Source of the DNA: Escherichia coli
Lineage (GTDB): Bacteria > Pseudomonadota > Gammaproteobacteria > Enterobacterales > Enterobacteriaceae
Direction: 5' to 3' (one strand)
NCBI RefSeq assembly: GCF_003334765.1
Contig: NZ_QOWT01000053.1
DNA length: 16,776 nucleotides
Position 1 is the first letter of the stretch. Each line of letters begins with the position of its first letter. This document shows positions 5,550 through 5,574 of the stretch, piece after piece. The notes beneath the pieces were generated by a model, which saw only the letters and a program-made list of their open reading frames with translations, made no database searches and had not been told where the DNA came from. The position numbers were made by a program, and so were the translations under genes.

Positions 5550-5574
5550 CCCCCCGCTCGGGGGGATTTTTTTA
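5550..5574. terminator. Rho-independent terminator shared by convergent satP and mog: CCCCCC-GCTC-GGGGGG stem followed by a T-run
   Basis: 6-bp G/C stem at 5550-5555 and 5560-5565, loop gctc, then ATTTTTTT at 5566-5573; the T-run overlaps the mog stop codon (TAA on - strand at 5572-5574). Confidence 0.7.

Follow-up and report, generated by a model that had tools for sequence, protein, structure and literature searches.

In Escherichia coli, one hairpin serving both genes of a convergent pair is already known as a common arrangement. Bidirectional terminators were mapped by SEnd-seq (Ju, Li and Liu, 2019), and, as that work is summarised in a later study (bioRxiv 10.1101/2022.10.23.513370), they are prevalent at E. 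coli convergent pairs; in the accounts drawn on here, the overlapping bidirectional class is known for hundreds of such pairs. In the later study, Wang et al. developed a collision model, with ynaJ-uspE as the model pair (bioRxiv 10.1101/2022.10.23.513370). A second class of hairpin-bounded 3' ends belongs to Rho-dependent transcripts, which U-less stem-loops shield from PNPase and RNase II (Dar and Sorek, 2018, PMC6061677). The canonical intrinsic terminator, with its GC-rich stem and U-tract, is the third point of reference. I describe here an element between satP and mog that very probably combines two roles, as a Rho-independent (intrinsic) terminator of satP and as a shared bidirectional 3'-end element of the convergent pair. 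Text searches for literature joining satP, mog and a terminator returned none, and neither gene is mentioned in the TERMITe supplements or in the SMRT-Cappable-seq supplements.

The window, by which I mean the whole stretch of 16,776 nucleotides that was analysed, is E. coli chromosome; reverse-complemented, it corresponds to the beginning of the K-12 MG1655 map, where the gene order is talB, mog, satP, yaaW, yaaI, dnaK. An exact sequence match fixes the coordinate conversion as MG1655 = 15465 - window position. The 301 nt round the spacer are exactly those of MG1655, with 4 mismatches in 4100 nt overall; 1.4 kb round the satP/mog junction shows 100% identity to E. coli chromosomes, and the satP-mog locus was found in 5425 of 5426 complete E. 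coli genomes. RefSeq names the genes in identical DNA satP (acetate uptake transporter), mog (molybdopterin adenylyltransferase) and tal. The MG1655 annotation further holds mbiA, an ORF lying wholly antisense to yaaW (4109-4822, plus strand), at window 4150-4635 on the minus strand, and the window has a long antisense ORF to match (164 aa from a GTG at 4644). The features on which the analysis turns are the following.

4971..5537, plus strand: satP (yaaH, b0010), acetate/succinate:H+ symporter (ORF list; RefSeq annotation of identical DNA, MG1655).
5535-5537, plus strand: stop codon TAA of satP (sequence).
5538-5571 (MG1655 9894-9927): spacer of 34 nt between the two stop codons, filled by the terminator (sequence).
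5543-5545 (MG1655 9920-9922), minus strand: 3' ends of mog mRNA (Adams et al. 2021 Term-seq; Bar et al. 2023 RNAtag-seq and raw Term-seq).
5545-5570, plus strand: extended 11-pair stem-loop of the satP-sense RNA (folding: -19.1 kcal/mol, z = -3.2 to -3.5).
5550-5565, foldable in the RNA of either strand: core hairpin CCCCCC-GCTC-GGGGGG (sequence, terminator scan, folding).
5567-5573, plus strand: T7 run, U-tract of the satP terminator (sequence; tail score).
5568-5577, peak 5573 (MG1655 9888-9897, dominant 9892), plus strand: 3' terminus of satP mRNA, classed 'Primary' (PMC10687069, LB RNAtag-seq).
5574-5572, minus strand: stop codon TAA of mog, its two A's lying opposite the final two T's of the T-run.
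5572..6159 (MG1655 9306-9893), minus strand: mog, molybdopterin adenylyltransferase (ORF list; MG1655).

The spacer reads TTGTTTTGAGAT-CCCCCC-GCTC-GGGGGG-ATTTTT. Its arms, CCCCCC at 5550-5555 and GGGGGG at 5560-5565, enclose the loop GCTC, and A5566, the seven T's, A5574 and TT follow. A first-pass annotation of this DNA had placed a 6-bp G/C stem and a T-run between satP and mog, with the T-run overlapping the minus-strand TAA of mog. All of its coordinates are confirmed, and the overlap amounts to two bases, T5572 and T5573, which together with A5574 form the complement of that stop codon. Its remark that the genes share essentially no intergenic space holds insofar as the terminator fills all 34 nt, but a spacer of that length does exist. 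Its further statement, that termination is encoded in the last codons of mog, was too strong, as neither the stem nor the T-run contains a sense codon.

In the satP-sense RNA the stem begins 8-12 nt past the satP TAA, with the G-C core at 12 nt, and the U7 tract starts one base past the G6 arm, A5566 standing between. The outer pairs of this stem are A-U and G-U, and such G-U pairs are possible on the plus strand only; the mog-sense RNA folds into 8 pairs only (-16.1 kcal/mol), six of them G-C. On the satP strand a d'Aubenton-Carafa-style tail score reaches 2.8-4.3, whereas the mog strand gives 0.5-0.8. There the longest run of U's after the hairpin is 1-2, so that the mog-sense structure lacks the U-rich tract of an intrinsic terminator.

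A scan with a loose terminator consensus gave 26 terminator-like sites in the window, a near-chance number (19.6 ± 3.8 expected), among which the satP/mog site ranks second-strongest, the thr attenuator being first. With stricter criteria, namely six or more consecutive G-C pairs, a loop of 3-8 nt and T in six or more of eight positions, the window has no other match, and only 3% of 300 dinucleotide-preserving shuffles of the full 16.8 kb, counted on both strands, show a site of this type. A chance palindrome is ruled out by this shuffle rate, by the place of the hairpin directly past satP and by the mapped RNA ends. At gathering thresholds Rfam has no match in the spacer, and its two matches in the window lie elsewhere. 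One is the thr operon leader/attenuator (15155-15274, minus strand, 121 bits), which is also the strongest terminator-like site of the window; the other is the tpke11 sRNA between dnaK and dnaJ (1298-1375, minus strand, 69.6 bits).

The 3' end of satP mRNA has been mapped in LB by RNAtag-seq, with adjusted p values of 1e-11, 0 and 7e-27 in three replicates (Bar et al., 2023, PMC10687069), and a second, independent RNAtag-seq dataset in the same study places it at MG1655 9889-9897. The peak at 5573 is the last T of the run, 8 nt past the stem and inside the complement of the mog TAA. The Term-seq of Adams et al. (2021, PMC7815308), covering LB at OD 0.4, LB at OD 2.0 and M63, lists no satP-strand 3' end at the terminator. 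Term-seq on both strands had been proposed as a check; in that study it delivers the mog-side end (MG1655 9920) and not its satP counterpart, and the latter rests on RNAtag-seq read-start analysis, not on a dedicated Term-seq call. Because Adams et al. list the mog-strand end alone, termination of satP at this site was at first doubted, and the two RNAtag-seq datasets reversed that doubt. The first-pass annotation had staked its claim that the hairpin terminates satP on plus-strand 3' ends at 5566-5575, and RNAtag-seq ends are indeed present (5568-5577), in both datasets. The published 3' UTRs, 37 nt for satP and 30 nt for mog, are similar to those of the neighbouring genes.

From the canonical hairpin-plus-U7 anatomy, and from a 3' end that falls within the U-tract, I infer with high confidence that the satP-side end is made by intrinsic termination, which would be independent of Rho. 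RNA polymerase transcribing satP would produce a GC-rich hairpin 12 nt past the stop codon and next transcribe seven U's, and the RNA would be released at the end of the U-tract, near 5573, within the complement of the mog TAA.

A further satP-strand 3' end, classed as internal to satP, is listed by Adams et al. (2021, PMC7815308) at MG1655 10394 (window 5071), some 100 nt inside the ORF; it is very abundant, at 23,469 and 40,654 Term-seq reads in two conditions. It lies 9 nt past a modest 8-bp hairpin, UAACCUGC...GUGGGUUA (feature 5042-5071, plus strand), and is missing from the LB RNAtag-seq list of Bar et al. This end could be due to premature termination, a stable 5' fragment or an artefact.

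On the mog strand, the published maps agree to within a few nucleotides. Adams et al. (2021, PMC7815308) list a Term-seq end at MG1655 9920 (window 5545), in the class 'primary mog, antisense satP'. Bar et al. (2023, PMC10687069) report a 'Primary' mog terminus at 9917-9929, dominant at 9922 (window 5543), from LB RNAtag-seq, and one at 9916-9929, dominant at 9921, in a second RNAtag-seq dataset; in raw LB Term-seq (PMC10687069), the mog strand peaks at 9921-9922 with 22-38 reads per replicate over a background of 0-2. The mog RNA terminus reads ...GGGGGGAUCUC(AA), without a U-tract. The satP and mog mRNAs therefore overlap by about 30 nt (29-31; window 5543-5573), and the overlap is the hairpin itself. 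The hairpin thus delimits mog as well as satP, and is an overlapping bidirectional 3'-end element. It had been read as one-directional, a reading that stands for the satP end but misses the mog 3' end at the same structure. Read from the opposite strand, the same palindrome forms an 8-bp hairpin just past the mog stop codon, and the steady-state mog mRNA ends 3-5 nt beyond it, at 5543-5545. With the U-tract absent, 'terminator' may be the wrong word in the mog direction.

How the mog-side end is made can be read in three ways, in which Rho with trimming ranks before collision, and collision before weak termination by the hairpin alone. The leading reading, to be held tentatively, is that the hairpin is protective: transcription would read through into antisense satP, Rho would stop it on the untranslated RNA, and a 3'-to-5' exonuclease would trim the transcript back to the hairpin base. 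A hairpin followed by AUCUCAAAAC, with the low tail score given above, fits this, since Rho-dependent E. coli transcripts end precisely just past stable U-less stem-loops (Dar and Sorek, 2018, PMC6061677). The next gene on the map offers a parallel, in that the talB end (window 6235) looks to be of the same type, with a U-less hairpin and a bicyclomycin-sensitive region about 140 nt downstream. However, the bicyclomycin table of Adams et al. has no Rho-dependent region between 9369 and 15388 on the mog strand, at a low level of mog expression. In the mog sense, C is mildly over G (0.28 vs 0.23) in the next 100 nt, and raw Term-seq counts drop to background right past 9925.

The talB mRNA end itself lies at MG1655 9230 (window 6235), just past a strong U-less hairpin (6235-6262), and the bicyclomycin-sensitive (Rho) region is that listed by Adams et al. 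at 9369 (window ~6096), early in mog, with a Rho score of 13. Taken together, they resemble Rho termination, within mog, of transcripts reading through from talB, with subsequent trimming to the hairpin; if so, transcription of mog is limited by Rho. Bar et al. further list an 'Internal mog' 3' terminus at 9299-9311, dominant at 9304 (~6161, minus strand), at the mog start codon.

A second reading, possible but doubtful, takes the element as a bidirectional terminator of the collision type, at which the hairpin pauses polymerases, and head-on and trailing collisions release the transcripts; the formation of the mog 3' end would then depend on transcription of satP, and vice versa. The geometry is as it should be, with convergent genes, 3' ends flanking one hairpin and an overlap of about 30 nt. 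This arrangement matches the class of Ju et al. (2019), as far as the accounts of that class go, and also the collision model, whose elements are reported to be unlike intrinsic terminators and Rho-independent (bioRxiv 10.1101/2022.10.23.513370). Better termination is reported for highly expressed pairs in this model (bioRxiv 10.1101/2022.10.23.513370), however, and both satP and mog are weakly expressed in the mapped conditions, with read-start densities over the coding sequences of 0.2-0.4, compared to 1.8-2.0 for talB. The satP side, moreover, is a perfectly canonical intrinsic terminator, at odds with the description of the collision class.

That the hairpin makes the mog end directly and alone, at low efficiency, by weak non-canonical intrinsic termination or as a strong U-less pause, is unlikely. 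The 8-bp stem with its six G-C pairs is stable in the mog-sense RNA (-16.1 kcal/mol), and the mog 3' ends fall 5-7 nt past the G6 arm, the usual release distance for intrinsic termination. The RNA-DNA hybrid at the point of release would be AUCUCAA, however, which is not U-rich, and intrinsic-type sites without a U-rich hybrid are terminated poorly by polymerase alone.

In order to see how the junction varies, I gathered 80 loci from species-representative Enterobacterales genomes, with SatP as the query. Comparing the spacing in other enterobacteria, as the first-pass annotation had suggested, shows that the 34-nt satP/mog junction is confined to E. coli among these loci, and that in most Enterobacterales it is the stop codon of another gene that adjoins the satP terminator. 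In about 50 species the distance between satP and mog is 1.4-2.0 kb (1.42-1.67 kb in all but one), in Citrobacter, Enterobacter, Klebsiella, Kosakonia, Buttiauxella, Cedecea, Pectobacterium, Dickeya, Serratia and other genera. The interval there contains a gene for a 435-aa MFS transporter (metabolite/H+ symporter type) on the mog strand, for example at 3102-4409 (minus strand) in locus L007. In species with the MFS gene, mog is followed by a promoter-like conserved spacer, TTTACGATATAGTAATTTTT, with no hairpin, and the length and C-terminal motif of Mog, FRPKSARR[D/E]xxx*, are kept in more than 50 orthologues.

A hairpin lies just past satP in every relative examined. For 32 of the 79 relatives, the convergent MFS gene has its stop codon, usually TAA, -1 to 13 nt from the stem end, often within the T-run, as in CGTTTTTTTATGA, and the MFS ORF apparently runs over the satP hairpin in five more relatives. 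Overlap of a stop codon with the terminator is thus usual in the family and nothing particular to mog. The C6-N4-G6 hairpin of E. coli recurs in Citrobacter with a free loop sequence; across the Escherichia and Citrobacter homologues the 8-bp core (with its flanking A-T and T-A pairs) is invariant while the loop varies. Among seven homologous hairpins, two of the outer pairs show weak compensatory change, in a comparison that is underpowered for covariation, the core stem being invariant.

Several of these loci depart from the simple pattern. The MFS ORF appears to cover the satP hairpin in Enterobacter (L022, L027, L028) and Pluralibacter (L032), and in L022 and L027 it appears to reach the 3' end of satP. 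Some 15 loci have neither mog nor the MFS gene within 2.5 kb of satP, and several genera carry extra genes between satP and the MFS gene or mog (L022, L038, L020, L033, L036). The sequence that follows satP is thus variable across Enterobacterales, and this suggests a small hotspot at which genes are gained and lost.

The MFS gene is absent from Escherichia: no orthologue was found in E. coli, and the 72%-identical gene present in 11 of 5426 genomes lies at another place. The most economical reading of these comparisons is that the MFS gene was lost in the Escherichia lineage, by a deletion that ran from the mog stop codon, or just beyond it, to that of the MFS gene. By such a loss, mog would have inherited a pre-existing position abutting the terminator, and its tight junction with satP would be an evolutionary accident. 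A bolder proposal joins this history to the collision reading: the mog-side end would be made by head-on collisions with polymerases from satP, tying mog read-through to satP transcription and vice versa, and Escherichia would have gained the coupling ready-made when loss of the MFS gene slid the mog stop codon onto the older satP terminator. I regard this as quite improbable; were it true, read-through of a molybdenum-cofactor gene would be tied to the activity of an acetate transporter gene.

Within E. coli the spacer has more than one allele. The 81-nt region is identical in at least 3235 E. coli genomes by megablast, a figure that is a lower bound, 960 genomes having been lost without a seed; the low-complexity filter of megablast probably masks the C6/G6/T7 stretch. 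A long spacer of about 204-207 nt, with some 170 nt more than the short form (L082, 839-1042; L002, 3068-3274), occurs in 467 of 5426 E. coli genomes (~9%), including the type strain ATCC 11775, and in E. albertii. In order from satP to mog, it contains one copy of the hairpin, a BIME (two inverted REPs) and a second copy of the hairpin. The satP-proximal copy is degenerate in E. coli, and strong but without a T-run in E. albertii; the mog-proximal copy is intact, with T-run and mog TAA (diverged in E. albertii), so that hairpin, T7 run and mog stop codon are intact in all 467 BIME-carrying genomes. Two histories can be proposed: insertion of the BIME, in the course of which about 20 nt of hairpin were duplicated, or loss of the stretch between the two copies, which would have produced the short form. 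Since E. albertii has the long form, the second is mildly favoured.

It is very improbable that the hairpin is a remnant or target of REP/BIME mobile-repeat activity, placed there by chance and no expression signal, as the two copies flanking the BIME in these E. coli genomes and E. albertii could suggest: Citrobacter has its C6-N4-G6 hairpin past satP without any BIME, for which reason a REP-derived origin is rejected, unrelated genera bear different hairpins there, as expected for a terminator under functional turnover, and transcript ends map on both flanks.

A third allele is found in a derivative of EPEC E2348/69 (L083, NZ_LT903847.1), where ISEc13, an IS4-family element at 630-2190, interrupts the hairpin loop (window 5554-5561). 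CCGCTCGG is duplicated on both sides of it, and the stem is destroyed. This allele is a natural knockout of the terminator, and the element is therefore dispensable, at least in that derivative.

The feature is real, ordinary and already known, its ends standing in public tables, and it is of little import beyond correct annotation: a terminator prediction made from sequence only agrees with the 3' ends already mapped in the literature. What the case adds is modest and evolutionary, in that the terminator stayed while its partner gene changed, from the MFS gene in most Enterobacterales to mog in Escherichia, and the spacer is a small hotspot for insertion of BIMEs and IS elements. The natural alleles, short, long and IS-disrupted, could be used for studying how 3' ends form at U-less hairpins.

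Set beside the canonical intrinsic terminator of E. coli, the element has the GC-rich stem (six G-C pairs and an extension), the 4-nt loop and the U7 tract, the stem lying 12 nt past the stop codon in the same orientation as satP, and the RNA ending in the U-tract. The satP side is no different from that type, and its sole peculiarity is a U-tract that extends two bases into the complement of a convergent TAA. BIME/REP spacers between convergent genes are represented by the long allele with its two inverted REPs, whereas the window holds the short allele without a REP, and the hairpin itself is no REP sequence. With the stem-loops of Dar and Sorek (2018, PMC6061677) the element shares a precise mog end just past a stable U-less stem-loop, but for mog no bicyclomycin-sensitive region is listed downstream of 9920. 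With the bidirectional class of Ju et al. (2019), as portrayed in the accounts of it cited here, it shares a convergent pair with one hairpin-encoding element between, and 3' ends on opposite flanks of the hairpin, the RNAs overlapping by about the hairpin length. That class is described there as unlike intrinsic terminators, whereas here a U-tract is missing in the mog direction only, and the satP direction conforms fully to the canonical type.
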